Positions 2,391 to 64,000 of a DNA stretch of 64,000 nt are shown here, one piece after another. Numbering within the stretch: position 1 is the stretch's first letter; the number at the start of each line of letters is the position of its first letter. The stretch is from Escherichia coli (lineage in GTDB: Bacteria; Pseudomonadota; Gammaproteobacteria; Enterobacterales; Enterobacteriaceae): the NCBI RefSeq assembly GCF_041248615.1, contig NZ_CP158426.1; one strand, 5' to 3'. The position numbers were made by a program, and so were the translations under genes. The notes under the pieces were generated by a model. That model did not search any database. It was not told where the DNA came from and saw nothing but the letters and a program-made list of their open reading frames with translations.

Positions 2391-3749
2391 ATGACTCAAC
2401 GACGTGATTTACAAGCACTGATCGATGCTGCTCCGGTCGGCAAGATGCAGTGGCGCGTTATCATCTGCTGTTTTCTGGTGGTAATGCTCGATGGTTTAGA
2501 CACCGCGGCTATCGGCTTTATCGCCCCTGATATTCGCACTCACTGGCAACTCACCGCAGGCGATCTCGCCCCGCTTTTTGGCGCGGGTCTGCTGGGGTTA
2601 ACCGCAGGCGCACTGCTTTGTGGTCCGTTGTCCGATCGCTTTGGCCGCAAACGGGTGATTGAGCTGTGCGTCTTTTTGTTTGGCGCGTTAAGCCTCGCCT
2701 CGGCTTTCTCACCGGATCTGCAAACGCTGGTATTCCTGCGTTTCCTCACCGGCCTTGGGCTGGGTGGCGCGATGCCAAACACAATTACCATGACCTCGGA
2801 ATATCTGCCTGCCCGCCGCCGCGGCGCGCTGGTGACGCTGATGTTTTGCGGCTTTACCCTGGGTTCGGCGTTTGGCGGGATTGTCAGCGCGCAGCTGGTG
2901 CCGGTGATTGGCTGGCACGGGATCCTGGTGTTGGGTGGCGTATTACCGCTGATGCTGTTTGTTGCACTGCTGGTGGTTCTGCCGGAATCGCCACGCTGGC
3001 AAGTGCGCCGCCAGCTACCCCGGGCGGTGATTGCGAAAACCGTCAGCGCCATCACCCGCGAGCGTTATGTCGATACCCACTTTTATCTCATTGAATCAGC
3101 CTCCGTTACAAAAGGCAGCATTCGTCAACTGTTTATGGGGCGTCAGTTACCCATCACGTTGATGCTGTGGGTGGTGTTCTTTATGAGCTTGCTGATTATT
3201 TACCTGCTCTCAAGCTGGATGCCAACGCTGCTCAACCATCGCGGCATCGACCTGCAACATGCCTCCTGGGTTACCGCCGCGTTCCAGATTGGCGGTACGT
3301 TGGGCGCGCTGGCGCTGGGCGTGCTGATGGATAAGTTCAATCCTTTCCGCGTACTGGCGCTGAGCTATGCCATAGGCGCTGTATGCATCGTGATGATTGG
3401 CTTAAGCCAGGACGGATTATGGCTAATGGCGCTGGCGATTTTCGGCACCGGCATTGGCATCAGCGGATCGCAGGTGGGGCTGAATGCGCTGACCGCAACA
3501 CTTTATCCAACACAAAGTCGCGCCACGGGCGTGAGCTGGTCAAACGCCGTGGGCCGCTGCGGCGCGATTGTTGGCTCGCTGTCTGGCGGCGTGATGATGG
3601 CGATGAATTTCTCTTTCGACACCCTGTTTTTCATTATCGCTGTGCCCGCGGCGATCAGTGCGGTGATGTTAACCCTGCTGATCACCGTGGTTCGCCAGTC
3701 GACCTCTGTCCCTGACTCACTGCCTCACGCAGGTGTTGTGAACGAATAA
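2391..3749 (+). CDS. mhbT: MFS aromatic-acid transporter (3-hydroxybenzoate/gentisate type)
   Basis: 452 aa, about 12 TM segments, MFS signature motifs (GRKR after TM2); first gene of the catabolic operon. Confidence 0.8.
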
Positions 3750-8416: not shown

Positions 8417-8677
8417 TCAATAGGCCGCACGGTTGTTTGGTGGCGTCAAAATTGCCGAGGCGTTCCCTGAAGGCCGGGGCAGCCCACATGGATGTGGGCT
8501 GAGGGCGCGTTTTACAGGGATGTTACCTCGCGCCCGACCCGGTAGCCGTAAGGGATAAGCCGAGGGCACCGCGCAGCGGCGATTTTGTTCGCCAGAGCCC
8601 GGGGGTGCAGGGGGCGGCGGCGATTGGCCGCCCCCTGCGCGCTCCTTGCGCCAGTGATTATATGAAGCAATACACAT
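8417..8677. repeat. GC-rich palindromic intergenic element (not classic REP consensus)
   Basis: about 260 bp of very high GC with several perfect hairpins (CAGCCCACAT/ATGTGGGCTG; GCAGGGGGCGGC/GCCGCCCCCTGC); the 86-aa ORF on the minus strand is low-complexity Pro/Gly/Arg-rich and is probably not coding. Confidence 0.45.
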
Positions 8678-8747
8678 GACAGGAGCGCAACAGGATGAGA
8701 GACTGAAATATTCTCGTTATTTTCGGACCTGATGACATTAATTAATT

Positions 8748-8831
8748 TTAAAATATCATCTTAAATACGCCAGTCACCACCAGTAGCCCAATCAGGAAAA
8801 TAATCAATACAGCCCAGAGTATAATTTTCAT
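8748..8831 (-). CDS. yohP: 27-aa small membrane protein
   Basis: manual translation of the minus strand gives MKIILWAVLIIFLIGLLVVTGVFKMIF, identical to recalled YohP; below the ORF-track size cutoff. Confidence 0.85.
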   Translation of the reverse strand: MKIILWAVLIIFLIGLLVVTGVFKMIF

Positions 8832-9054
8832 TGGCGTTCCTTTATTTGTGAGTGCTGAATAAGTATAGGAAAAAACGAAGCCCTTTGCCGTTATCCATAA
8901 ACGATTAAGATAAATCGGAAGATATCATTCACTTAGTGTATATTTTTCTGGATATGTCGTTTTATTGCTACTGATGTATTGCCACGCGAAACTAAAAAAT
9001 ATATCGCAACACACGGTAATCTCCGCGCACCTTTTCTTACCTGATTATTCCCCC

Positions 9055-50629: not shown

Positions 50630-50657
50630 CCCCCTCTCTTCGAGGGGGCTTTTTTTC
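50630..50657 (+). terminator. rho-independent terminator after yehA (convergent with rcnB)
   Basis: CCCCCTC-tcttc-GAGGGGG followed by CTTTTTTT. Confidence 0.65.
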
Positions 50658-50994
50658 AGCGATGATAAAAAATCTCACCGTCGTAGGCTTTAATGATTTT
50701 ACCGTCGGTGTCGTTGATCAACACGTACGCGCCACCCATATAGGTCCAGTGTGTCCCGGCATCAGGCGCGGGCAGGTTACGTAACTGCCACTGCTTAATG
50801 TTGTACTCATCGGTGCGGTACATCTCTGGGACGGTATCGCCTGGTTTGAAATGCTTAAAGTCAGCAATGAAACTGCTTAACTCATACTTAGAAATTCCCG
50901 AGGTATTGGTCGAACCCGCGGTGGCTGGTGCGGCCCAGGCGGCACTGGTAACCAGCAAAAGCACACCCAGCAACATCTTATTTTTAATGGTCAT
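50656..50994 (-). CDS. rcnB: periplasmic nickel/cobalt homeostasis protein
   Basis: ORF 50656-51174; start set at MTIKNKMLLGVLLLVTSAAWA giving 112 aa as recalled for RcnB (YohN). Confidence 0.85.
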   Translation of the reverse strand: MTIKNKMLLGVLLLVTSAAWAAPATAGSTNTSGISKYELSSFIADFKHFKPGDTVPEMYRTDEYNIKQWQLRNLPAPDAGTHWTYMGGAYVLINDTDGKIIKAYDGEIFYHR

Positions 50995-51212: not shown

Positions 51213-52037
51213 TTATCGCATTATGCCCATGAAGCCATGTACGCCCATATACACACCAACTAAGCCAATCAACAGACTGGAAAAATAGGGGGCGCGTTTA
51301 GCGAGAGTGTTAAATCCGCTCCAGCGTTTTGCGACCTGCTGAACGCTGATTGCTGCGCCAACGCCTACGGTGACCAGCGTTAACGCCAGGCCAATGCTGA
51401 AACTGACGACCAGTGTTGCGCCCAGTGTCAGGGCTTTCAACTGAATGCAAATCAACAGCACGGTAATTGCTGCCGGGCAGGGGATAAGGCCACCGGTTAA
51501 GCCAAATAACAAAATTTGCCAGTTGGTGACCTCTCTACCATCAAAGCGTCGTTTAATGTCATTGGCATGGGCTCGTGCATGGGCATCCTGATACTCGCCA
51601 TGTTCGTGATGGTGATGATGTCCATGGTCGTGGTGATCTTCGTGATCGTGGTGATGATGCTCATGATCATGCTCGTGCATATTCTCCAGCCAGTTTCGTT
51701 CGCCGCGCCAGGTACGCCAGAACATCCAGAACGCGGTGCCAATAATGATCACTGCGGAAATCAACTGGAGCCACGGTTCTGCTGATTGAGCAGTAAAGCG
51801 CTTGCTGATCACCATCCCGCCAAAGGCAATCAACCAGACCACTGCGGTATGCGAAATGGTTGCTGCCAGTCCGAGCATCACCGCCTGTTTAATGGTGCCT
51901 TTGATGGCGATGATAAACGCCGCCATCATCGTTTTTGAGTGCCCTGGTTCCAGGCCATGAAGCGCACCAAGTAAGATGGCGCTGGGGATGAAGAACCAGG
52001 CGTTTCCTTGCTGAAGAAGAGTTGTAAATTCGGTCAT
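51213..52037 (-). CDS. rcnA: nickel/cobalt efflux permease with histidine-rich loop
   Basis: 274 aa; His-rich loop HEHDHEHHHHDHEDHHDHGHHHHHEHGE between TM segments. Confidence 0.9.
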   Translation of the reverse strand: MTEFTTLLQQGNAWFFIPSAILLGALHGLEPGHSKTMMAAFIIAIKGTIKQAVMLGLAATISHTAVVWLIAFGGMVISKRFTAQSAEPWLQLISAVIIIGTAFWMFWRTWRGERNWLENMHEHDHEHHHHDHEDHHDHGHHHHHEHGEYQDAHARAHANDIKRRFDGREVTNWQILLFGLTGGLIPCPAAITVLLICIQLKALTLGATLVVSFSIGLALTLVTVGVGAAISVQQVAKRWSGFNTLAKRAPYFSSLLIGLVGVYMGVHGFMGIMR

Positions 52038-52074
52038 GATAATAATTCTTAGTATTAATTCGGCAATCTGATTC

Positions 52075-52109
52075 TACTCCCCCCCAGTACCTGATACTAC
52101 CCCCCAGTA
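52075..52109. promoter_or_regulatory. two RcnR operator sites (TACT-G6-N-AGTA) in the rcnA-rcnR divergent promoter region
   Basis: plus strand reads TACTCCCCCCCAGTA and TACTACCCCCCAGTA 5 bp apart; matches the published RcnR recognition motif. Confidence 0.8.
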
Positions 52110-52157
52110 GATTAATAGTGCTATGATTTTTCATATTCTTATTAACCAGGTGTTGCC

Positions 52158-52430
52158 ATGTCTCATACCATCCGTGATAAACAGAAACTGAAAGCGCGTG
52201 CCAGTAAGATTCAGGGCCAGGTCGTGGCGCTCAAGAAAATGCTCGACGAGCCGCACGAATGCGCTGCAGTTTTACAACAGATTGCTGCTATCCGTGGCGC
52301 GGTAAACGGTCTGATGCGGGAAGTGATTAAAGGTCATCTGACGGAACACATCGTTCACCAGGGGGATGAGCTAAAACGTGAAGAAGATCTGGATGTCGTT
52401 CTGAAGGTGCTGGATTCTTATATCAAATAA
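52158..52430 (+). CDS. rcnR: Ni/Co-responsive transcriptional repressor (CsoR/RcnR family)
   Basis: 90 aa; matches recalled RcnR; divergent from rcnA. Confidence 0.9.
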
Positions 52431-52519: not shown

Positions 52520-52600
52520 AACCAAACGACTCGGGGTGCCCTTCTGCGTGAAGGCTGAGAAATACCCGTATCACCTGATCTGGATAATGCCAGCGTAGGT
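52520..52600 (+). ncRNA. TPP riboswitch aptamer (thi-box) of the thiM leader
   Basis: AACCAAACGACTCGGGGTGCCCTTCTGCGTGAAGGCTGAGAAATACCCGTATCACCTGATCTGGATAATGCCAGCGTAGG matches the recalled E. coli thiM TPP aptamer; similarity ends at about 52600. Confidence 0.85.
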
Positions 52601-52654
52601 TGCCAACATTCTGATTAGTATTCATGTGGTTACATTTCTTTTTGTCCGTGTGTA

Positions 52655-53986
52655 ATGCACCTAATGTACAAAAAGAGCGTAAACATGAGGTACAAAACTC
52701 TTCCATACACGTTTCAAAGAAACGGTAATTACTATCTACAGATTCGGCTTTCGAATGGTCGGATGTATAAAAAATCACTTCTCACTGACAGCTATCGTGA
52801 AGTCTCTGCTTTGATGATTGGTGTTGCTCCGTACATTCCTTTTGTTAAATCATTAGCCATCACAATCCCGATGTTTGATGCCTTTGTTTCAAACCTGATT
52901 ATGTCAAAACTTAGGGCTGTAAAAGTTCCGCTGCTATCACATCAGTCGGTAATTACCCCTGCTACATTCGAGGAACCAGCGACACAAGCCGAACCGCAAA
53001 ACATGCTAACTCTTTCTGATGCGTGGGCTATGTATAAAGCGGAAAAGGGTAAAACATGGACAAAGTCGATCTCAAGGGCGAATGAGCGTTACATGGAAGT
53101 CTTGATGGTTGTCTTGGGAGAGACAACTGACGTAGTTGCGATTTCTAAGCAGGACATCAAGCAGGTGATGGAAGTTGTTGAGAATTTGCCTAAGCGTGTT
53201 GTCCAACCGTATCGCTCAATGAACATCCAGCAACTGATTGAATGTGATGATGTATCACCGAATGAGTTAGTAGGAGTGGAAGCCATTCATAAGCATCTCA
53301 AAATCTACAAATCGCTTTTCAAGACTTTTCTAACAGAAAACAAAGATATTTTGATTAAATCCCCAACTGATGGGGTAGTAGCAGCACCATCTAAAGCAAG
53401 GTTTGGAGCATACAGTTCGGCGGAGATGAAGAAGTTTGTAGAGTGGGCACTTAAGCAGCCAGATGGCTGGCAGAAGTGGATAACATTGTTGTTGGCATAC
53501 ACAGGAGCCAGAAGGGGAGAAATTGCCAAACTGGAAAAATCACAAATAAAATATGATGAGGATAGCCATCGGTATTATTTCCTGATTGCAGAAGGAGGGC
53601 AGGGGAAAACCGAAAATGCTACCCGACAAGTAGTGATACACCCTAAGTTGATCGAATGGGGTTTCATGGAATACGTTGATCGCCAGTGGAAAGAACGGAT
53701 TTTTTCAGAAGTGGCTGGTACAAACATGACGAAGATCGGTAAAGAATTTGCTGATGTGCGTGACCAGCTTGACATTCCGTACTTAGACGATTTTGGACAG
53801 CGGAGGCTTTTGCATAGCATTCGTCATTCTGTTTGCTCTACTGCGATGGCTGGATGGGTAAAGAACATCTTGCATCTGCAACAAACAGTAGGCCATGAGA
53901 AAAGTGGAGGGATCACTAAACGCTACTTACATACGTTCCCACTATCATCAATTTGTTATGTTATTGATGGGATTAGTTGGGTCTGA
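52655..53986 (+). CDS. tyrosine-type site-specific integrase (island integrase)
   Basis: C-terminal catalytic box LHSIRHS...GH...Y (R-H-R-Y tyrosine recombinase motif); true start may be the Met at 52685. Confidence 0.75.
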   Translation: MHLMYKKSVNMRYKTLPYTFQRNGNYYLQIRLSNGRMYKKSLLTDSYREVSALMIGVAPYIPFVKSLAITIPMFDAFVSNLIMSKLRAVKVPLLSHQSVITPATFEEPATQAEPQNMLTLSDAWAMYKAEKGKTWTKSISRANERYMEVLMVVLGETTDVVAISKQDIKQVMEVVENLPKRVVQPYRSMNIQQLIECDDVSPNELVGVEAIHKHLKIYKSLFKTFLTENKDILIKSPTDGVVAAPSKARFGAYSSAEMKKFVEWALKQPDGWQKWITLLLAYTGARRGEIAKLEKSQIKYDEDSHRYYFLIAEGGQGKTENATRQVVIHPKLIEWGFMEYVDRQWKERIFSEVAGTNMTKIGKEFADVRDQLDIPYLDDFGQRRLLHSIRHSVCSTAMAGWVKNILHLQQTVGHEKSGGITKRYLHTFPLSSICYVIDGISWV

Positions 53987-54203
53987 AACTGCTAAGAATG
54001 ATAGGAAAAGCTACTTAATGATCCTTAGTTTTGGATGAAATTGAAGATTACAAAGATCTTGAGCGAATAAGAGCGTTTTTTAATCAAAAAAGCCATAAAA
54101 ACTTTTCTTGACTGTATATTAACACAGTGCTTCTACTATGTAGAAGAAATCGACATGAAAAATTTGATATGGTAAATTTTATCCATGATAACAAAAAGGT
54201 ATT

Positions 54204-55106
54204 GTGGATATGTTACTACCAATACGAGTTCATAAACGATTTCTAACTTTATTTAAGACTTTGCAAATTGACGATTGCCCACCGCAATCAACTTTAAATA
54301 TTCATGTACTTAATATCGAAAGCAATGAATTTATATACTGTAAATTAGTTGAAGAATTACGTGACATAATAATTACTTATGTACATTCGAATAGAAGGCT
54401 TGAGGAGTTTAAGGAAAGTTATCCTTCGTATAGCCCTAAACCTTTTTTCGAAGCAATACAAAAATTTCGCAATTATACGTCAAACGAAGGTGAGTTAGGT
54501 GAACTGCTTTTATACGCTTTTCTTGAAACAGGACTAAATGCTCCGAAATTACTTTCCAAAATGCAATTGAAAACAGATTCTAATGATTACATTAAGGGTT
54601 CTGATGGTGTACATCTGTTAGAATTAGATGATGGTTATCAATTAATATTTGGAGAATCAAAGCTCTATGCCGATCTTTTAGAAGGTGCTCGAGAAGCGTT
54701 TGATTCTATTTTAGATTTTAAAAGTAATGGAATGGCATTTGAAAGAGGGCTGATAGATACACACGTTATAAATGAAATGGTTTCAGAAGAAGGTTATGAG
54801 AAAATAAAATCAATTCTTCTTCCTTCTTCTGGCGATGATGGGCCAGATCTTGATTTATCCTTTGGTATATTTCTTGGTTTTGAATTGAAAATAGATAGCT
54901 CACAGTTATCATTGAAAAACAAAGAGTTTAGAGATTGGGTTAATGAGTCCGTGAAACAACATGCTACTCGCGTGGTCAGTACGATACGAAGGAAAATTAT
55001 TAATCATAAATTATATGGTCACGAATTCCACATATATATAGTTCCTTTTACCGATATTGATGTTACACGAAAAAAATTAATTCATGAAATGCTAACAATT
55101 AAGTGA
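54204..55106 (+). CDS. PD-(D/E)xK-like putative nuclease, HamA-like (Hachiman-type effector candidate)
   Basis: 300 aa; motif ELDDGYQLIFGESK (D...ExK); stop overlaps the start of the downstream helicase gene by 4 nt; low GC, island context. Confidence 0.5.
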   Translation: MDMLLPIRVHKRFLTLFKTLQIDDCPPQSTLNIHVLNIESNEFIYCKLVEELRDIIITYVHSNRRLEEFKESYPSYSPKPFFEAIQKFRNYTSNEGELGELLLYAFLETGLNAPKLLSKMQLKTDSNDYIKGSDGVHLLELDDGYQLIFGESKLYADLLEGAREAFDSILDFKSNGMAFERGLIDTHVINEMVSEEGYEKIKSILLPSSGDDGPDLDLSFGIFLGFELKIDSSQLSLKNKEFRDWVNESVKQHATRVVSTIRRKIINHKLYGHEFHIYIVPFTDIDVTRKKLIHEMLTIK

Positions 55107-57691
55107 ACACTATGAATGAATTAAATTCAAGTAAAAACATTCATTTGGCAGCTCGTCTTGCAGATGATGCTTTTGAAAGTGCTTATTTTAAAGAAATCAA
55201 TAAGTTTATAAGTGGTTTATACAATTACAGTTTATTTAACTGCGATTCAGATGTTAGTCTCTCCGAGAGTGATAACAATAAAATAGCACACGCTTTGCGT
55301 TTTGCAGATATATTTTCACATTCTTCAAAAGAAAATCATAGATCATGTGCATTTGAAATTATAAGTAGAATAGCCTTATTAAAAAAACATGATCCTTATT
55401 TTAAATTTATAGGTACTGCTGTTATTAATCGGCTTGGGGTTTATGCAGCAGAAAAACTCATATCAAAAGGGGTAAAATTACCCTTAGATAGAGAAGTTGA
55501 TTCTATTATTAAAAAATCAGTTCAGAAAACAGATGAAGATGGAGTATATTTCACTGATAAACAACATGAGTTATACAAACTTTTAAAAAGTAGCAAAACA
55601 ATTAGTTTTGCTGGTCCCACTTCGATGGGAAAGTCATTTGTTATTAATGCATACATTAAGGAAATAACTCTTAAAAAAGAGCTTAAAAATATAGCTTTAA
55701 TTGTTCCTACACGGGCTTTAATAAGCCAAAATGCACTTAAGTTAAAAATTGATATTGCATTGTATAAGAATGAAAGCCCTTATAAAGTTGTTACGACATC
55801 CTACATTATTAATGGTGATGAAAGTAAAAATAAAGGCTATATTTTTATTCTCACCCCAGAAAGGCTGGTTAGTCTCATAAGCACTATTCCTGGACTAATG
55901 ATTGATTATGTTTTTGTAGATGAAGCTCAAAAGTTAACAACAAAAAATGATTCGAGGAGTCTTGTTACTTATTCAGCTATAGAGCAAACAATTAGTAAAA
56001 ATCCTGAGGCAAGATTATTCTTCTCTTCACCTAATTTATCTAATCCTGAAATATTTAATATTTTGTTTGATAGAAAAGACGCTTCGGTATATAGAAATAC
56101 AGAAGGTGCAACTACTCAGAATATGTATTTTATTGATCTTTTAAATAGCAGCTTTAGCTATGTTAATACCGAGAAAAGGACGCTTGAAAAAATAGATGAG
56201 ATCTCTAATACTTACACGAATACAAATGATGTTATCTATAAATTAAATAATGGTAAAAGTAAAATAATTTATTGTGGGGGGATAGAAAGCACGCTTGAGA
56301 GAACACGTAGCTTTATCAATTATCTCAAAATTAATAAGAAAAAAAGAAAGCATTTAAATTTAGAAATATCTTCTGAGATAAGAAACTTTGTTCATGATAA
56401 CTATGAACTTGCAGAAGCCATCAACTATGGTGTTGCTTTCCACTTTGGAAACTTGCCTCAATCGATTCGAGATTTAATTGAGCATCATTTCAAAATAGGA
56501 AATATTGACTATCTATTCTGTACATCAACCCTACTTGAGGGAGTCAATTTACCTGCAAGATCCGTATTTATTCTTACGCATAAAAAAGGCCCCAGTCCAT
56601 TAGAGTCGGTTGATTTTTGGAATCTGGCTGGGAGAGCTGGGCGATTATCTATGGAATTGTCAGGGGATATTTTTTGTATTAGGGATGATAATAAGCTTTG
56701 GAATAAAAAAGCTGTTGATAATATCCTTCTGTCTGACAAAAATAACATTTCATTAAAGCCAAGCTTCTATATTGAAGACGAAAAAAGATTGAACGATTTA
56801 CACCATATAATTACGACTGGTAAAACAGGGAATATTAAAAATGCTGAGTTCCTTAGAACTTTAGGAGATATGATAAGAATAGACACTCTGAGGGATTCTA
56901 AAGAACTTCCTCTTATTAGTTATTTCCAAAGCAGTGGAAAATCAGAAATTTTGTTAAGTGCAGAAAAAAGCACTGAAAATATTACCATGCCAATGAATAT
57001 CCTTTTGGCAAATAGTCATATTGCGATTGATTCGCAGTATCATGCTTTTAAAAAAATAAAAAGCCTTACAGTTAAGGAACTGAAATTATCATGGCAGCCT
57101 ACATACGAAGAAATTAAAGAAAAATTGAATTTGATATTCGATATTTACCAAGTTGAAAAGTTTGCAACAGGTAGAGAACGTCTTTATTTAAATTCAATTC
57201 CATATTATGCAGTATTACTGTTTCAATGGATTCGTGGAAATAGTCTACAGGAAATTATCTCGGGGGCAATTGCTTATAGAAAGAACAAAAGTATATATAT
57301 TAAAAATACACCTGTTCTTTTTGACAGCGAAAACCCAGCTCATTTAACTGCATTAGTTAATGAAACTATAAAAGACATTGAGTTGCGTGTAGGTTACCAG
57401 TTACAAAATTATTTTTCACATTACTGTCAGCTTCTGAATTATGTGTTACAAGGAAATCCAGGGGCAAACTGGTCTCAGTTCATTGAGTTTGGCTCTAATG
57501 AGCCAATAGTATGGCACCTACAAATGATGGGCTTTTCAAGGGATAGTGCAGTTTTTCTCAAGAAGAATTTTTCAAAACATCTTAAACTTGATAATGAAAT
57601 GAATAAACTCATCATAATGGATAAGGAACTGATCAAGCGTTCTTTCAAAAAAGATGGACTACATTACTTAGAAATCCAATCGTTATTATAA
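55103..57691 (+). CDS. SF2 helicase, HamB-like (Hachiman-type helicase candidate)
   Basis: 862 aa; Walker A AGPTSMGKS, Walker B FVDEAQK, SSP motif, motif V TSTLLEGVNLP and motif VI AGRAGR. Confidence 0.55.
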   Translation: MNTMNELNSSKNIHLAARLADDAFESAYFKEINKFISGLYNYSLFNCDSDVSLSESDNNKIAHALRFADIFSHSSKENHRSCAFEIISRIALLKKHDPYFKFIGTAVINRLGVYAAEKLISKGVKLPLDREVDSIIKKSVQKTDEDGVYFTDKQHELYKLLKSSKTISFAGPTSMGKSFVINAYIKEITLKKELKNIALIVPTRALISQNALKLKIDIALYKNESPYKVVTTSYIINGDESKNKGYIFILTPERLVSLISTIPGLMIDYVFVDEAQKLTTKNDSRSLVTYSAIEQTISKNPEARLFFSSPNLSNPEIFNILFDRKDASVYRNTEGATTQNMYFIDLLNSSFSYVNTEKRTLEKIDEISNTYTNTNDVIYKLNNGKSKIIYCGGIESTLERTRSFINYLKINKKKRKHLNLEISSEIRNFVHDNYELAEAINYGVAFHFGNLPQSIRDLIEHHFKIGNIDYLFCTSTLLEGVNLPARSVFILTHKKGPSPLESVDFWNLAGRAGRLSMELSGDIFCIRDDNKLWNKKAVDNILLSDKNNISLKPSFYIEDEKRLNDLHHIITTGKTGNIKNAEFLRTLGDMIRIDTLRDSKELPLISYFQSSGKSEILLSAEKSTENITMPMNILLANSHIAIDSQYHAFKKIKSLTVKELKLSWQPTYEEIKEKLNLIFDIYQVEKFATGRERLYLNSIPYYAVLLFQWIRGNSLQEIISGAIAYRKNKSIYIKNTPVLFDSENPAHLTALVNETIKDIELRVGYQLQNYFSHYCQLLNYVLQGNPGANWSQFIEFGSNEPIVWHLQMMGFSRDSAVFLKKNFSKHLKLDNEMNKLIIMDKELIKRSFKKDGLHYLEIQSLL

Positions 57692-57697
57692 AACTGC

Positions 57698-57727
57698 CGA
57701 ATCAGAGTCTTTTATTGATTCTGATTC
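57698..57727 (+). terminator. hairpin downstream of the helicase gene (no clear U-tract)
   Basis: CGAATCAGA-(loop)-TCTGATTCG. Confidence 0.35.
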
Positions 57728-57999
57728 GCACTTATATAGTTAAATCAAAAGGAGCATTAAAATTTTTCAGTAGCGATTTAGTATGCTAAATCGCTGCATA
57801 ACGAATCTGCTTCTAAATCTTGATTAAGTGTTTCGAACTGCCTTGATTGTTTATTGCTACACTTTATAATTAATCGCAACACACAAAACAATACAATGTA
57901 GGCAGTTGCACAGAATTAATTACAGGCACATTATGGATATCGAGAGGATTCGAACAGTTTTAAACTGCAAGCCCTTTGACTTTATCCCCTCCTACTATA

Positions 58000-58575
58000 T
58001 CAGCGTTTGATGCCGCTAATACTGGCAAGCATTTCTTTCTTCACACGAAAAACTGTAGCCCTGCCGCAATCACATAACTTTGCTATCTCGTCTGGTGTAT
58101 TCTTCCCGGCCTGTAACATATCGATAATCTTGTTATGTAGCTCTTTGTTCTTTTGCTTGCCCTTGTACTTCTTAGCCTCTTTAGCAAGAGCAATCCCCTC
58201 ATTGCGACGAGATGCGATCATACCCCGCTCAAATTCTGCAGCGGCTCCCATCATGGTTAGGATAAGGCGTGATTGTGGGGAATTATCAAAACTCATAGAG
58301 TTTGCAAGGAATTGAACAGTGATTCCACGAGCCACGAGGTTATCAATCATTTCCAGCAAATCGCGGGTATTACGTGCAAGGCGATCAATCGAGTGAGTAA
58401 CGAGCGTGTCACCTTCGCGGAGGTGTGAAAGCAGGTTCAACAATTCAGGTCTTTCGCTGGTGGACTTACCTGATTCTTTCTCTGCCACAATTTTGTCACA
58501 AACAGGTTCCAGCACTGCCAACTGACGCTCAAGATTTTGATCCTTTGTTGAGACTCTCGCGTAACCAAAAATCAT
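58000..58575 (-). CDS. serine recombinase (resolvase/invertase family)
   Basis: N-terminal catalytic domain MIFGYARVSTKDQ with catalytic Ser, C-terminal HTH; 191 aa. Confidence 0.85.
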   Translation of the reverse strand: MIFGYARVSTKDQNLERQLAVLEPVCDKIVAEKESGKSTSERPELLNLLSHLREGDTLVTHSIDRLARNTRDLLEMIDNLVARGITVQFLANSMSFDNSPQSRLILTMMGAAAEFERGMIASRRNEGIALAKEAKKYKGKQKNKELHNKIIDMLQAGKNTPDEIAKLCDCGRATVFRVKKEMLASISGIKR

Positions 58576-58589
58576 TTTCCTGCCCTCAC

Positions 58590-58665
58590 TTACGTGAAAA
58601 GTATCATTTGAATTTACTTAATGATACAGTATCATTTAAATGCATTCAACATCTAAATGATACTA
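58590..58665. promoter_or_regulatory. res-like recombinase binding site (imperfect inverted repeats) upstream of the serine recombinase gene
   Basis: repeated TATCATTT(A/G)AAT half-sites in inverted orientation (GTATCATTTGAAT...ATGATACA; TATCATTTAAATG...ATCTAAATGATAC). Confidence 0.5.
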
Positions 58666-59125
58666 AACGAGACGAGAAAAGCGAGTATCGTTAGGGAGTA
58701 CCCAAAAGAGATTTTTGATCGTGCGTTTTTTAGTCAATGTAGGGTTAGTGAAAAGTTCAGTACCGAGATCTGAGTTCACGGCATTTTGTCGACGGGGTTG
58801 AACCTGATTAGGCGAACGAGATTTTAAATCAGGCGGAATAAAACAAGTTGTACTTTTATCTGAGTAAAAGATCCCTTTAACTTTTTAGTCAGAAATCGTG
58901 ATACTAGGGGTTTGGTTATTTTGTGTCCTTAAGGCCAGTACTTTTAGCGAGGACGAAAAAACGGCCTACATGAGAACGCTTACAGTAACTTAAGTATATT
59001 ATCCAAAAAGTCACTTAACTTAAATCAATTTGGATGCAAAATCGCCACACTTTGCAAGTGAACACATACCGGGCAACAAGCAAATAAAAAAGGCCACTTT
59101 CGCGACCTTGTACCAGTACAAACAC

Positions 59126-59485
59126 TCATTCAGAACGATCAAGTACCATATATGCTGGCTGACACATGCTGCCCCGCTCCTGTAGCCAGTAGTAATCAAG
59201 ATCGGCAACACGCACGTCCAATCCAGAATCTACACGGTTGATCTGTAACCGTAGCCCTACAGTATCCTTGTACGATAAACCAGATTTAACATTGTATTTG
59301 TACTTAACACCGTTTTCCTGTTCAAACTGTTTAAGGAAAGGCGTCATTTGTTTCTGAATTTCTTTCAAACAAATAACCTCATTATCAATAGCAAAGGGGG
59401 GTTCTGTTTTTCCATCAGGTACAGCAGCCTGTAAATGAAAGGAAGTACTCAACAATAACAGCATTGCAACAGAAGTCTTTTTCAT
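59126..59485 (-). CDS. small secreted protein of unknown function
   Basis: 119 aa; cleavable signal peptide MKKTSVAMLLLLSTSFHLQA; 43 nt downstream of the membrane protein gene. Confidence 0.6.
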   Translation of the reverse strand: MKKTSVAMLLLLSTSFHLQAAVPDGKTEPPFAIDNEVICLKEIQKQMTPFLKQFEQENGVKYKYNVKSGLSYKDTVGLRLQINRVDSGLDVRVADLDYYWLQERGSMCQPAYMVLDRSE

Positions 59486-59528
59486 TTTAATTCCTTATTA
59501 AAGAACAGTACATTATATTTCAATGGAC

Positions 59529-60569
59529 TTAATAACAATATTTTATATTTCCTTCGGGTTTTCTCATGCATTTAATTCCTTCAGGAATATAATCAGTTAC
59601 GGGAGCAGGTCTGGCATCAGGTCTTGAAAGACGATTGGATATAGAAGACAACAGACTGAAAACACACTCATTAAATGATTTTTGATATTTATTTTTTTCA
59701 TAAAAGTACTGCATGGTGATTTTATCTCTTTCGTATTGCAATTCTTTGCCAAGCTGAATCCTATCCATATCAATTCCATTTCTCATAGCATTAAATCTTT
59801 CGTTCAATAAATTAAATTGAGATTTATTCCATTCATTTAAAGGAAATAAAGAATTGTTAAGCCTTTGCCTACAATTAGATTGCTCGATAGCTGACATGTA
59901 TTCTTTCATACTAACGCCAATATCTAAGTATGTGAGTTGTCCAGCAGTTCTATCAACTGAGTTATTAGGGTAAGATTTAATTTCAGTAAGTATTGACTCT
60001 GTTAATACTGCATTTTCTTCTAAATCTTTGCTAATAGTTATTTGAGCTTGTTCTCTTTTATCCTTATCAAATATTGAAATGTATTTCTTTACTATATCCT
60101 GATTAGCTTTCTCGGCTGCTACTAACGCATCTTGAACCTTCTTTTCCGCCGCTTTAACTCGTTGTTCTTCTACAAATTTCGCGTAGTCATCAGTATTTGT
60201 AATGTGATTTTCACGAGCGATAGAAAACTCTTTACTATCTTTAAAACCAAGTTTTTGTGCTCTGGCTCCATCGCTTGAAGATCGGGCAGAACTTGCCACG
60301 AAAGCGAGCACAATGATCAGTACAGGAACCGTATAATTATTAACGAGTTTATAGGGTAAGAACTTCGCTTTAAGCGTACCATAACCCAAAACAGCCCAGC
60401 CTATCGCGGCAGTACTTGCCAGTAGCTGGCACAATCCAGCGACGGAAAGCATGATTACCGACCAGAAGCCTGTACCGACTGCGAAAAGATCACCAAATTT
60501 CTCCATTGACGCAAGGAATAAAAACACTCCCCAAATGCCATAAAATCCTATTTTCAAATATTTACTCAC
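59529..60569 (-). CDS. 3-TM membrane protein with large charged coiled-coil-like C-terminal domain, unknown function
   Basis: 346 aa; three N-terminal hydrophobic helices followed by a K/E/Q-rich soluble domain. Confidence 0.6.
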   Translation of the reverse strand: MSKYLKIGFYGIWGVFLFLASMEKFGDLFAVGTGFWSVIMLSVAGLCQLLASTAAIGWAVLGYGTLKAKFLPYKLVNNYTVPVLIIVLAFVASSARSSSDGARAQKLGFKDSKEFSIARENHITNTDDYAKFVEEQRVKAAEKKVQDALVAAEKANQDIVKKYISIFDKDKREQAQITISKDLEENAVLTESILTEIKSYPNNSVDRTAGQLTYLDIGVSMKEYMSAIEQSNCRQRLNNSLFPLNEWNKSQFNLLNERFNAMRNGIDMDRIQLGKELQYERDKITMQYFYEKNKYQKSFNECVFSLLSSISNRLSRPDARPAPVTDYIPEGIKCMRKPEGNIKYCY

Positions 60570-60779
60570 CGCAATTATCCTTTAATAATTTTCCAAATCG
60601 ATGGTTCGTTCTATTTGTATTATCGACAATAATTCGTTTGCCTTTAGGTAGATCCCTTAAAAAGGAATCCCCCCAAAATTTATAGATTAGCAGTTGTACC
60701 ACTCTCACTGTTTTGTCACTCCCATTATCTTCTCTCAGGTCAAAAGTACGGACTTAAAGCCGTCCGTGTTCAGGTGCTC

Positions 60780-60900
60780 AAGAGTAGCACGCATATCAAT
60801 AAATGATCGATAAAAACGATCAATTAATGGCTTATTGATCGCTATAACCTATCAATGACTATTAATTCAATACAAATCAATAGGTAAAATCGATCAAGAG
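60780..60900. repeat. AT-rich cluster of ATCAAT/ATTGAT repeats with GATC sites (iteron/origin-like or protein-binding array)
   Basis: five ATCAAT/ATTGAT copies and four GATC sites within about 120 bp, in an ORF-free region. Confidence 0.45.
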
Positions 60901-61552
60901 GATTCGTCATCCATGAAAGGGGTTATGTATCTGATTTCAATACAGGGAGTATTAGCGATACCATCACGCAAACGCTCTTAAAGCGTAGCTACGGCGTTTT
61001 GTAGGGTTTTTGGTCATTCATGTGTGTCAGTAATGAACATCGCATTCAGGGGCTTCCTGTGCGTTTTGTCCGAAACACCATCATGAAGGGGGACAGATCG
61101 GATCGGGGTCGCTTCGCTCTGGTCAGTACTGGATAGTTCTTTTCCAGTAACTGAAACCGCAGATACCCCACTAAGTACACAAAGGAATTATTTGTAGAAT
61201 AAGTAATGAAATAACAGTCAGTTATGTACTTACTGACAGAACTAAAAACGCGATTAGGTTCGCTCTGTCAGTGACCGAAGGGAACGCAACAGTAGAATCT
61301 AATCCAGCGAACAGTACACGCAAGCGGGTGCTGTTTAATTGTTTTATCTATGTAAACAATGGGATAGCTATCAAGTACTCACTGCGTGAGCACTCTCACT
61401 AACTACCCGAAACAGTTCGCTTGCTTCGCCGCTCCTACTTTCAGGTAGTTAATTCGCTTTCGCTCGTTGTGATGTCCGAAATTTATTACCTATAGTATTA
61501 TAAGGTATTATTTTCCGGACATTTATGTATTTTTATGATGGTGTTCTGGACA

Positions 61553-63028
61553 TCATTTTTTGCTTTTTTGTACTTCCTTTTCGTATTTGTTCCACATAGC
61601 CTTTTGCTCTTCGGGACTGAGTGCTGTATTACCACTGGCAAGAAACACCTTGAACGCTTCTAACTCAAGCCCTGGGTTGCGGCTTTTCCAGCGGCGAAAA
61701 CGCTTAGCGTGATTATCATCAAGAGTGAAACGCTTTTGCTTATTCTTTGAACCTTGCGGCCTGCCTCTCGACCTCTGCTCATCATCAATACCGATATCTA
61801 TATACTCAATATTATCTGTAAGAGATCTGGCTTGCCATTCATCAAAAACATAAACAGTCTGTGTTTCAGTACTGTCAAAATCCCTTGAAATTCCTCGTAG
61901 TACGAACTGGTGTAAACTTTCGTACTCCCTCGCAACATGTATCGCCTCGCCGTCAATCTCAAAGAACAATTCGCACTGTTTAGCCTCTGTTTCAGAGGGA
62001 CGCATACAAGCGAGCCAGACGCACGTGAGCAAGTGTTGGTACTGGTTAAACCCTCTGGCATCCGGGCTTATCTCTGTGCCGTTTTTGAGGCTCTGAGAAT
62101 CGCTTTTGTTCTTCGTCCAGTAGAAATCCTGTCCCTCAAGTTTTTTATCAATAAATGAGTATATTTTTTGTACTTTATCAGGGTTATTAGTCTTCCATGT
62201 CTTCGATAGTTTTTGATTTTTTGAGAAGTAATAAACCTTTAATCTGTCTTTGAGAGCTGTTTTTCGTGTCAGTAATCCTCCAAGTTCAGTACTTTCAAAG
62301 AGTTCTTTATTGCCTTTATAGATCAATGAATTTTCGAAATTAGCTCCGAGAAAGGTGATTGATACGTCTTTGTACTTACTGAGATCTTTCCATGCGGTAA
62401 TATTAAGCTGTTCCTTTTTCGCATCGGTAAAGTACTCATTATTCATGATGAACATATCATTTTCGTTAATTGCTGGTAGCTGGTTCAAAATATTCTTCAG
62501 TACTTCCCCTTGTATTTCTGGTTTTCTTTCTGCCGCAATATACATATTTTTATCATCTAATGTCAGTACATTGTGTATTAATGAATTAAGAATTGTATTT
62601 TTTATATTAGTATCACCCTCATTAATATTCTGAAAAGAGTGAAAATTAGTAACGTCGTCAATATAAATATTACAGTCAGATAACAATTCAGGAGGAATTT
62701 TGAAAAACGTTTTATCTGTTATGAGTAATGTTTTATTACTTCCAGATGAAAGAAAGTTAATAACTGAATTAATAACACTTTCATCTTTTGGTACTGTATC
62801 TGTAATTATATACTCGCAATTATTGATTTGCTTTGCTGTCTGCTTAATAAGTTCTTGAGTGTTCTGTACTAAAATATATTTTTCAGTACTGTTATTGATT
62901 ATATTGCATATAGCAGTAGTTTTACCTGAACCACAAGGGGCGGAGACATACTTAAATTTATTATAAATAGGTGTGGGATTAATCATTTGTACACGCTCCA
63001 TATTGATTAATGTAGAAAGGTCAGCCAT
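61553..63028 (-). CDS. P-loop NTPase with C-terminal AT-hook (RGRP-GSKNK) DNA-binding tail, unknown family
   Basis: 491 aa; Walker A APCGSGKTT near the N-terminus, candidate Walker B NIYIDDV; C-terminal RSRGRPQGSKNKQKR matches the AT-hook consensus. Confidence 0.6.
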   Translation of the reverse strand: MADLSTLINMERVQMINPTPIYNKFKYVSAPCGSGKTTAICNIINNSTEKYILVQNTQELIKQTAKQINNCEYIITDTVPKDESVINSVINFLSSGSNKTLLITDKTFFKIPPELLSDCNIYIDDVTNFHSFQNINEGDTNIKNTILNSLIHNVLTLDDKNMYIAAERKPEIQGEVLKNILNQLPAINENDMFIMNNEYFTDAKKEQLNITAWKDLSKYKDVSITFLGANFENSLIYKGNKELFESTELGGLLTRKTALKDRLKVYYFSKNQKLSKTWKTNNPDKVQKIYSFIDKKLEGQDFYWTKNKSDSQSLKNGTEISPDARGFNQYQHLLTCVWLACMRPSETEAKQCELFFEIDGEAIHVAREYESLHQFVLRGISRDFDSTETQTVYVFDEWQARSLTDNIEYIDIGIDDEQRSRGRPQGSKNKQKRFTLDDNHAKRFRRWKSRNPGLELEAFKVFLASGNTALSPEEQKAMWNKYEKEVQKSKK

Positions 63029-63359
63029 TCCAGTGTCTGGCCTTTCGTTGTTTTAGTTATTAGTCTTTTTGAGTTGCGACAACTGCAAGAGAATGTTTAT
63101 AAACAAGTGAAATAAGCAGTTTTACCGCCTCAAAAGCTACAGTCAGTTTCGTAATTATTTTCGAAAGCATCGTAAATTTCACTTCGCTATCTTCTATGCA
63201 AAAATTAGCAGCCTGAGGTATTTAATGATTGAGATGTGGCCTGTTGATAAGAGGGTTTGTATTGCTTGTTCTGCTCTTTGTTAATTTGTGACTTATTCCT
63301 TTCACAATGATCGGCTATGTTTGATAACTCTGTTAGGAAATCACCTATGGCTACCATAT

Positions 63360-64000
63360 TGGATTTGCCCCTATATTTCCAGACACCTGTTATCACTTAA
63401 CCCATTACTGGCCTGCTGCCGCAGATATTCCCGTGGCGAGCGATAACCCAGTGCACTATGCGGATGCCATTCGTTATAATGCTCGAACGCCTCTGCAAGG
63501 TTCTTTGCTGCCGTTAACCCGTCTGGTTTAGGCATGATACTGATGTAGTCACGCTTTATCGTTTTCACGAAGCTCTCTGCTATGCCGTTACTCTCCGGAC
63601 TCCGCACCGCCGTGTTCTTCGGTTCAAGCCCCAATATCCGGGCAAACTGCCGTGTTTCATTAGCCCGGTAGCATGAACCATTATCCGTCAGCCACTCTAC
63701 TGGAGACGCCGGAAGCTCGTTGCCGAAGCGGCGTTCCACCGCTCCCAGCATGACGTCCTGTACTGTTTCACTGTCGAAGCCGCCCGTAGTGACTGCCCAG
63801 TGCAGTGCCTCACGGTCACAGCAGTCCAGCGCGAACGTGACTCGCAGTTTTTCTCCGTTATCACAGCGGAACTCGAACCCGTCAGAGCACCATCGTTGAT
63901 TGCTTTCTTTCACGGCCACTTTGCCAGTATGTGCCCGTTTCGATGGCGGTACAGCGGTTTTTCGCTCAAGCAACAGCGCATTCTGGCGCATGATCCGGTA
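63360..64000 (-). mobile_element. IS2 (IS3 family), partial; right terminal inverted repeat at about 63360, element runs past the window end
   Basis: terminus TGGATTTGCCCCTATATTTCCAGACA matches the recalled IS2 end; encoded protein matches the recalled IS2 InsD (OrfB) C-terminus. Confidence 0.85.
63371..64000 (-). CDS. insD: IS2 transposase OrfB (InsD), 3' portion; 5' end beyond the window
   Basis: translation ...[39 protein letters not shown]...[19 protein letters not shown] matches recalled InsD (DDE integrase core). Confidence 0.85.

Follow-up and report, generated by a model that had tools for sequence, protein, structure and literature searches.

Tandem RcnR operator sites between the divergent rcnA and rcnR genes of an Escherichia coli genome

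Efflux of nickel and cobalt in E. coli is controlled by the repressor RcnR, whose operator consensus, a tandem of TACT-G6-N-AGTA, goes back to Iwig & Chivers 2009 and Blaha et al. 2011, as quoted in three open-access papers. The operator consists of two such motifs, from which RcnR dissociates upon encountering Co or Ni (PMC7105576); one tetramer occupies each site, contacting the TACT/AGTA arms and recognizing the A-form shape of the G-tract (PMC3902906). Both sites lie between the transcription starts of rcnR and rcnAB, and RcnR represses both promoters (PMC4124493, citing Blaha 2011), with rcnA and rcnB being co-transcribed from the rcnA promoter (PMC4124493). The RcnR/rcnA operator-promoter of Salmonella Typhimurium shows the same de-repression and the same two tetramers per operator fragment (PMC5709419, PMC4528141): binding to the rcnA operator fragment occurs at a 2:1 tetramer:DNA ratio, and DNA affinity drops at least 90-fold once RcnR is metal-bound (PMC5709419).

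Related regulators follow variations of this scheme. Metal likewise relieves repression by the type-2 CsoR proteins of Streptomyces lividans and Bacillus subtilis, yet their effector is Cu(I) and their sites, unlike those of RcnR, comprise two short G/C tracts, are bound by two tetramers each and have about 11 bp between repeats (PMC3902906). FrmR, which responds to formaldehyde, acts on operators upstream of frmRAB with a similar architecture of AT-arms and G-tract, but the motif itself differs from that of RcnR, as seen in a FrmR-like locus (L005). In a search of the PDB, FrmR was the nearest paralogue of known structure (5LCY, 5LBM), and no structure of RcnR or of an RcnR–DNA complex was found.

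We inspected the corresponding region in a 64,000-nt stretch of an E. coli genome (hereafter, the window). Here, rcnA (51213–52037, minus strand), encoding a Ni/Co efflux permease of 274 aa with a His-rich loop (NF007454, E = 5.8e-169), and rcnR (52158–52430, plus strand), encoding a 90-aa Ni(II)/Co(II)-responsive repressor of the CsoR/RcnR family (NF011613 equivalog, E = 4e-59; 197.3 bits against a cutoff of 138), are divergently oriented and separated by a gap of 120 bp that corresponds exactly to positions 52038–52157. Downstream of rcnA, collinearity with K-12 and a Pfam match (PF11776 RcnB, E = 3.5e-19) place rcnB (50656–50994, minus strand), the gene for a periplasmic accessory protein. 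The window and MG1655 encode the same RcnR protein, with the metal-ligand residues His3, Cys35, His60 and His64 as well as the DNA-binding RASK motif (residues 14–17) in place. RcnA differs from its MG1655 counterpart by four amino acids (G100S, E122G, H125Y and D134H, window residue first), three of them located in or adjoining the His-rich loop.

[quoted passage not shown] Both were located, jointly filling positions 52075–52109. The rcnA-proximal site (site 1; 52075–52089, minus strand) reads TACT-C7-AGTA on the plus strand (TACTCCCCCCCAGTA) and TACTGGGGGGGAGTA on the rcnA-sense strand, while the rcnR-proximal site (site 2; 52095–52109, minus strand) reads TACT-A-C6-AGTA (TACTACCCCCCAGTA) and TACTGGGGGGTAGTA, respectively; the 5 bp between them (52090–52094) are CCTGA, so that the plus strand across both sites reads ...gattcTACTCCCCCCCAGTAcctgaTACTACCCCCCAGTAgattaa... 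and the site centers lie 20 bp, or about two helical turns, apart. The arms and the tract of the originally proposed pattern, TACT-(C/G)6-7-AGTA, were thus recovered, yet the interior measures 7 nt in both sites (C7 in one, A plus C6 in the other) rather than varying between 6 and 7. Similarly, the term 'palindrome' holds for the inverted 4-bp arms of each site and no further, as the C/G tracts of the two sites reside on the same strand. In agreement with this, a repeat search reported sites 1 and 2 as a 15-nt direct repeat (family D2) with 93% identity and 20-bp spacing. The pair is, consequently, a direct tandem of pseudo-palindromes in the same orientation.

Comparison with the published consensus revealed an exact match: TACTGGGGGGNAGTA, representing TACT-G6-N-AGTA as quoted in the later papers, aligns to the minus strand of either site with 0 mismatches. 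Inverted arms of merely 4 bp are common, and in an AT-rich intergenic region the two sites could in principle have arisen by chance and lack a function. Searching the full 64 kb for the loose pattern TACT-N7-AGTA returned these two matches only, against an expectation of 0.34 in shuffled sequences, of which 6 in 100 contained two or more matches, a point in favor of coincidence. Specifying the G-tract speaks against it. Even when up to two mismatches to TACTGGGGGGNAGTA were tolerated, shuffles yielded 0.15 matches, and an estimate assuming independent bases predicts 4.6e-4 exact single sites in a window, a figure that falls to 2.6e-7 once a second site no more than 30 bp away is required as well.

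The intergenic DNA is also nearly identical to that of K-12, in which RcnR binding had been demonstrated. Between positions 52020 and 52175, the window differs from K-12 ER3413 by one intergenic SNP (52141; A in the window, G in K-12), which lies 32 bp past site 2 and downstream of the rcnR start, and by one synonymous base within rcnR. Coordinates convert to those of MG1655 by subtraction of the window position from 2237954, placing the two sites (52075–52109) at 2185845–2185879. Relative to the K-12 rcnA–rcnR operator (Blaha et al. 2011, Biochimie 93:434), the sites, spacer, position, flanking genes and RcnR protein are the same, whereas the SNP at 52141 and an island inserted after rcnR set the window apart. 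Because of the exact consensus match and the near-identity to K-12 DNA, the window element is, judged by its sequence, the published RcnR operator itself and as such already known. The first-pass annotation was therefore right both in naming RcnR as the cognate regulator and in not claiming novelty.

Within the species, the region is close to invariant. A 401-bp probe matched 5363 of 5426 complete E. coli genomes, where the flanking genes are annotated as rcnA and rcnR, and of the 5360 complete genomes (again out of 5426) that possess the 120-bp intergenic region, just one fell short of 95% identity. The C7 and C6 runs might in principle be slippage-prone contingency tracts that turn rcnA or rcnR on and off by changing in length. 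In the assembly of E. coli JX4-T, site 2 indeed has C7 in place of C6. Its rcnA is frameshifted as well, though, as is typical of homopolymer sequencing errors, which is why the additional base is possibly such an error. Substitutions in the other strains sampled for the alignment (from which the rows for E. albertii and Escherichia sp. MOD1 were omitted on account of wrong-orientation coordinates) all fell outside of the sites, and this, together with the near-uniformity of the region across genomes, makes length-based switching highly improbable.

Two further strains deviate. In the wastewater sludge isolate E. coli WW2, a 23-bp duplication (CTGATTCTACTCCCCCCCAGTAC; positions 1470–1560 of its locus, L089) gives rise to three RcnR sites, and a different integrase follows the thiamine pyrophosphate (TPP) riboswitch. 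In E. coli ET979 (positions 3149–3846 of L084), IS1A sits directly upstream of rcnA and both the operator and rcnR are absent, with unrelated ORFs taking their place ahead of the TPP riboswitch and thiM; rcnA is presumably no longer controlled by RcnR in this strain.

To follow the element beyond E. coli, 100,044 species, each represented by one genome, were scanned for an exact tandem of the form TACTGGGGGGNAGTA-N(0-30)-TACTGGGGGGNAGTA. The scan returned 78 loci from many genera of the Enterobacterales as well as from four Vibrio, three Shewanella and one Chromobacterium which, having been selected by the exact motif, speak to the specificity of its location and not to how frequent the tandem is among rcnR loci. 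After uniform orientation, the loci were searched with the RcnR and RcnA proteins of the window (tblastn). An rcnR homologue of 58–100% identity was present in 75 of the 78, starting 44–98 bp (mostly 48–50 bp) to the right of site 2; the sequences of the other three end within about 100 bp. On the opposite side, 70 loci harbored an rcnA homologue starting 31–43 bp (mostly 36–37 bp) to the left of site 1. Lack of a full divergent rcnA match applied to four loci that are short on the left, one with a partial match and the three Shewanella.

All the while, the surrounding sequence has diverged. The sites are exact in the 78 loci as their spacers and flanks differ, with spacers of 5 bp (61 loci) outnumbering those of 6 bp (16 loci). 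In Salmonella enterica subsp. diarizonae, for instance, the same exact tandem is separated by TGTAA instead of the CCTGA of the window, the flanks differ, and RcnR is 94% identical. Recurrence of the exact tandem at the same place between rcnA and rcnR homologues in 78 species, amid diverged spacers and flanks, adds to the site statistics above, and a chance origin is effectively refuted.

Loci retrieved by protein similarity offer a partial control on the motif-based selection. The rcnA–rcnR locus of an IncHI2 plasmid (RcnR 92% identical) has both sites exact, with AAATA as the spacer and diverged flanks; a locus on a Ralstonia megaplasmid (RcnR 63% identical) contains a single site, TACTGCCCCCCAGTA.

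Several lineages depart from the simple pair. Ten Enterobacter/Lelliottia and three Klebsiella loci possess a third site, TACTC(A/C)GGGGGAGTA, in opposite orientation and 6 bp past site 2. Four Kosakonia loci and one Enterobacteriaceae metagenome-assembled genome have a degenerate third site (aACTCCCCCCCAGTt), and in Vibrio diabolicus the third site (TACTACCCCCAGTA) is situated in the middle. The three Shewanella loci combine the exact tandem with an rcnR homologue of 67–68% identity, and tblastn detected no rcnA homologue adjoining the operator in any of them. In the sole one inspected, L033, the divergent gene (8542–8913) encodes a membrane protein of 123 aa, for which no confident Pfam family match was obtained.

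Might these sites serve another regulator, such as the paralogous FrmR, NikR or Fur? E. coli does encode FrmR, a protein of the same fold (its model, NF008464, matches the window RcnR at E = 1.6e-21), and a G-tract flanked by AT-rich repeats is common to operators of the CsoR family. Nevertheless, published work attributes this very motif to RcnR, every exact-tandem locus with enough flanking DNA has an rcnR homologue beside it, and a FrmR-like locus of Acinetobacter, upstream of formaldehyde-detoxification genes, displays a different motif, ATACTATGGGGTACTATAGTAT. As for Fur, box-like matches occur only elsewhere, at 52032–52056, and are weak (14/19). Regulation of the tandem by a protein other than RcnR is hence very unlikely.

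We therefore consider the element to be an operator common to the divergent rcnA(B) and rcnR promoters, composed of two 15-bp sites of the type-1 CsoR/RcnR family in direct tandem, and assign this reading a probability of roughly 0.96. Its relation to the promoters was deduced from mapped transcription starts where available. SMRT-Cappable-seq of MG1655 lists a start at 2185819 on the reverse strand for the b2105|b2104|b2103 transcript, that is, rcnR-thiM-thiD (PMC6131387 Supplementary Data 2), which the coordinate map places at window position 52135 ±1. Upstream of it, on the plus strand, lies an extended –10 element, TGcTATGAT (TGCTATGAT; 52119–52127), with transcription starting 8 nt after TATGAT. 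Relative to this start, site 2 extends from –40 to –26, over the –35 region, and site 1 from –60 to –46. Across species, the best –10-like hexamer was found 12 nt after site 2, the offset seen in the window, in 35 of 77 loci, and TG directly preceded the best hexamer in 38 of the 77.

The mapped start also bears on the notion that the repeats fold, as RNA or DNA, into a structure such as a hairpin, attenuator or terminator instead of serving as protein-binding sites. Their arms are able to pair, and minimum-free-energy folds make use of the TACT/AGTA arms. The fold energies are ordinary, however (z = –1.61 for the plus and +0.33 for the minus strand), no terminator-like site and no Rfam match were found in the intergenic region, and the sites, being upstream of the rcnR start, are not part of the rcnR RNA. 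A structural role in place of protein binding is accordingly about as improbable as mere coincidence.

For rcnA, open data yielded no start site. The SMRT-Cappable-seq tables that list rcnR contain no start for rcnA or rcnB (PMC6131387), and the Cappable-seq supplements (PMC4782308) give no start-site coordinate in this interval. A candidate –10 hexamer for rcnA(B), TAGAAT (52076 to 52071, minus strand), overlaps site 1, its first two bases being the final two of the outer arm. At this offset, TAnnnT is found in 74 of 77 loci and TAGAAT itself in 40, suggesting that the hexamer is likely the rcnA –10. From the conserved TAGAAT and the statement in PMC4124493, we infer an rcnA start near 52064, which fits the described placement of both sites between the rcnR and rcnAB starts. 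Relative to a start at this position, site 1 would span about –11 to –25 and site 2 about –31 to –45.

Two other candidates for the rcnA promoter were discarded. The sole output of a generic promoter scan, TTGCCG/TATTAT on the minus strand, has a –10 abutting the rcnA start codon and was rejected because no room would be left for a leader or ribosome-binding site; the same scan reported neither the proposed rcnA nor the proposed rcnR promoter, both of which have poor –35 hexamers. An internal TAGTAT (52099 to 52094), in which the arm of site 2 is joined by the first base of the spacer, shows conservation in 76 of 77 loci but was set aside because transcription would then start inside site 1, at odds with both sites lying between the starts (PMC4124493).

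Alignment of the 78 loci further uncovered positions that are conserved beyond the published consensus. Read on the rcnA-sense strand, its 'N' is G in the rcnA-proximal site of 77 loci and T in the rcnR-proximal site of all 78 (on the rcnR-sense strand, C in 77 and A in 78, respectively). The spacer sequence is free to vary across species up to its final position, occupied by A in 77 of the 78. In addition, the outer flanks exhibit a conserved ATTC...GAAT symmetry around the pair, which in the window (52070–52113) corresponds to inverted repeat I1. One tentative explanation is that the consensus understates the constraint on the operator at its 'N', at the base before site 2 and in the outer flanks, be it that the operator is interwoven with both –10 hexamers or that the flanks provide extra RcnR contacts, in keeping with the reported DNA wrapping. 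Under either reading, the functional unit would be a module of about 45 bp and not two 15-bp sites.

RcnR binding, stoichiometry and metal response are known from K-12 and Salmonella and are carried over to the present strain by analogy. On these premises, RcnR tetramers would occupy both sites in the absence of metal and repress both promoters, with the bound protein lying over core elements of two back-to-back promoters. Site 2 would cover the –35 region of PrcnR and, on the other strand, that of PrcnA, whose likely –10 is abutted or overlapped by site 1; as this geometry suggests, RNA polymerase could thereby be kept off both promoters. Once RcnR takes up Ni(II) or Co(II), its affinity for DNA would weaken, leading to derepression of rcnAB, and thus of metal efflux, and of rcnR itself through autoregulation.

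Next to the operator, an AT-rich stretch at 52032–52056 overlaps the rcnA start codon and resembles a Fur box, matching 14 of 19 positions of GATAATGATAATCATTATC on both strands. Matches of this quality number eight in the 64 kb, this stretch being among the best in the window, and in other genera the corresponding sequence forms the palindrome AGAATnATTCT. None of the papers checked for a Fur site at rcnA describes one. The one hint at a link between RcnRA and iron homeostasis is the title of Koch et al. 2007.

Past rcnR, collinearity with K-12 stops at 52599 (junction 52599/52600), within the thiM TPP riboswitch at its 3′ end. The remainder of the window (52600–64000) is island DNA, and thiM is not reached before the window ends. 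This part encodes a tyrosine integrase (52655–53986), the Hachiman anti-phage proteins HamA (54204–55106; PADLOC E = 2e-120) and HamB (55103–57691; PADLOC E = 8e-296), a resolvase (58000–58575), a helicase-like ORF (61553–63028) and an IS-type rve integrase (63371–63991). The junction is rare: of 5426 complete E. coli genomes, just 26 have it. The island of isolate 362 measures about 11.3 kb and has a copy of the TPP riboswitch at each end. In the window, a full-length TPP aptamer (52522–52617; RF00059, 58 bits, with the gathering score at 54.3), whose last ~18 nt are island-derived, lies directly upstream of the island integrase gene in place of thiM, where it might bring the integrase under the control of thiamine. 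Given the K-12 read-through transcript rcnR-thiM-thiD detected by SMRT-Cappable-seq, the island would part rcnR from thiMD in this strain.

Taken together, the main value of the locus is that of a positive control, namely that a textbook metal-responsive operator is readable from raw sequence. The first-pass annotation had regarded the element as an internal check on annotation and orientation, and it proved a valid one: with rcnA on the minus and rcnR on the plus strand, the place and orientation of the operator validate the annotation of the yehA-rcnB-rcnA / rcnR part of the window. For nickel and cobalt homeostasis, no open question is changed by the finding. Comparison across species adds modest detail, in that the tandem is kept from Escherichia to Vibrio and Chromobacterium, as is its distance to either start codon.
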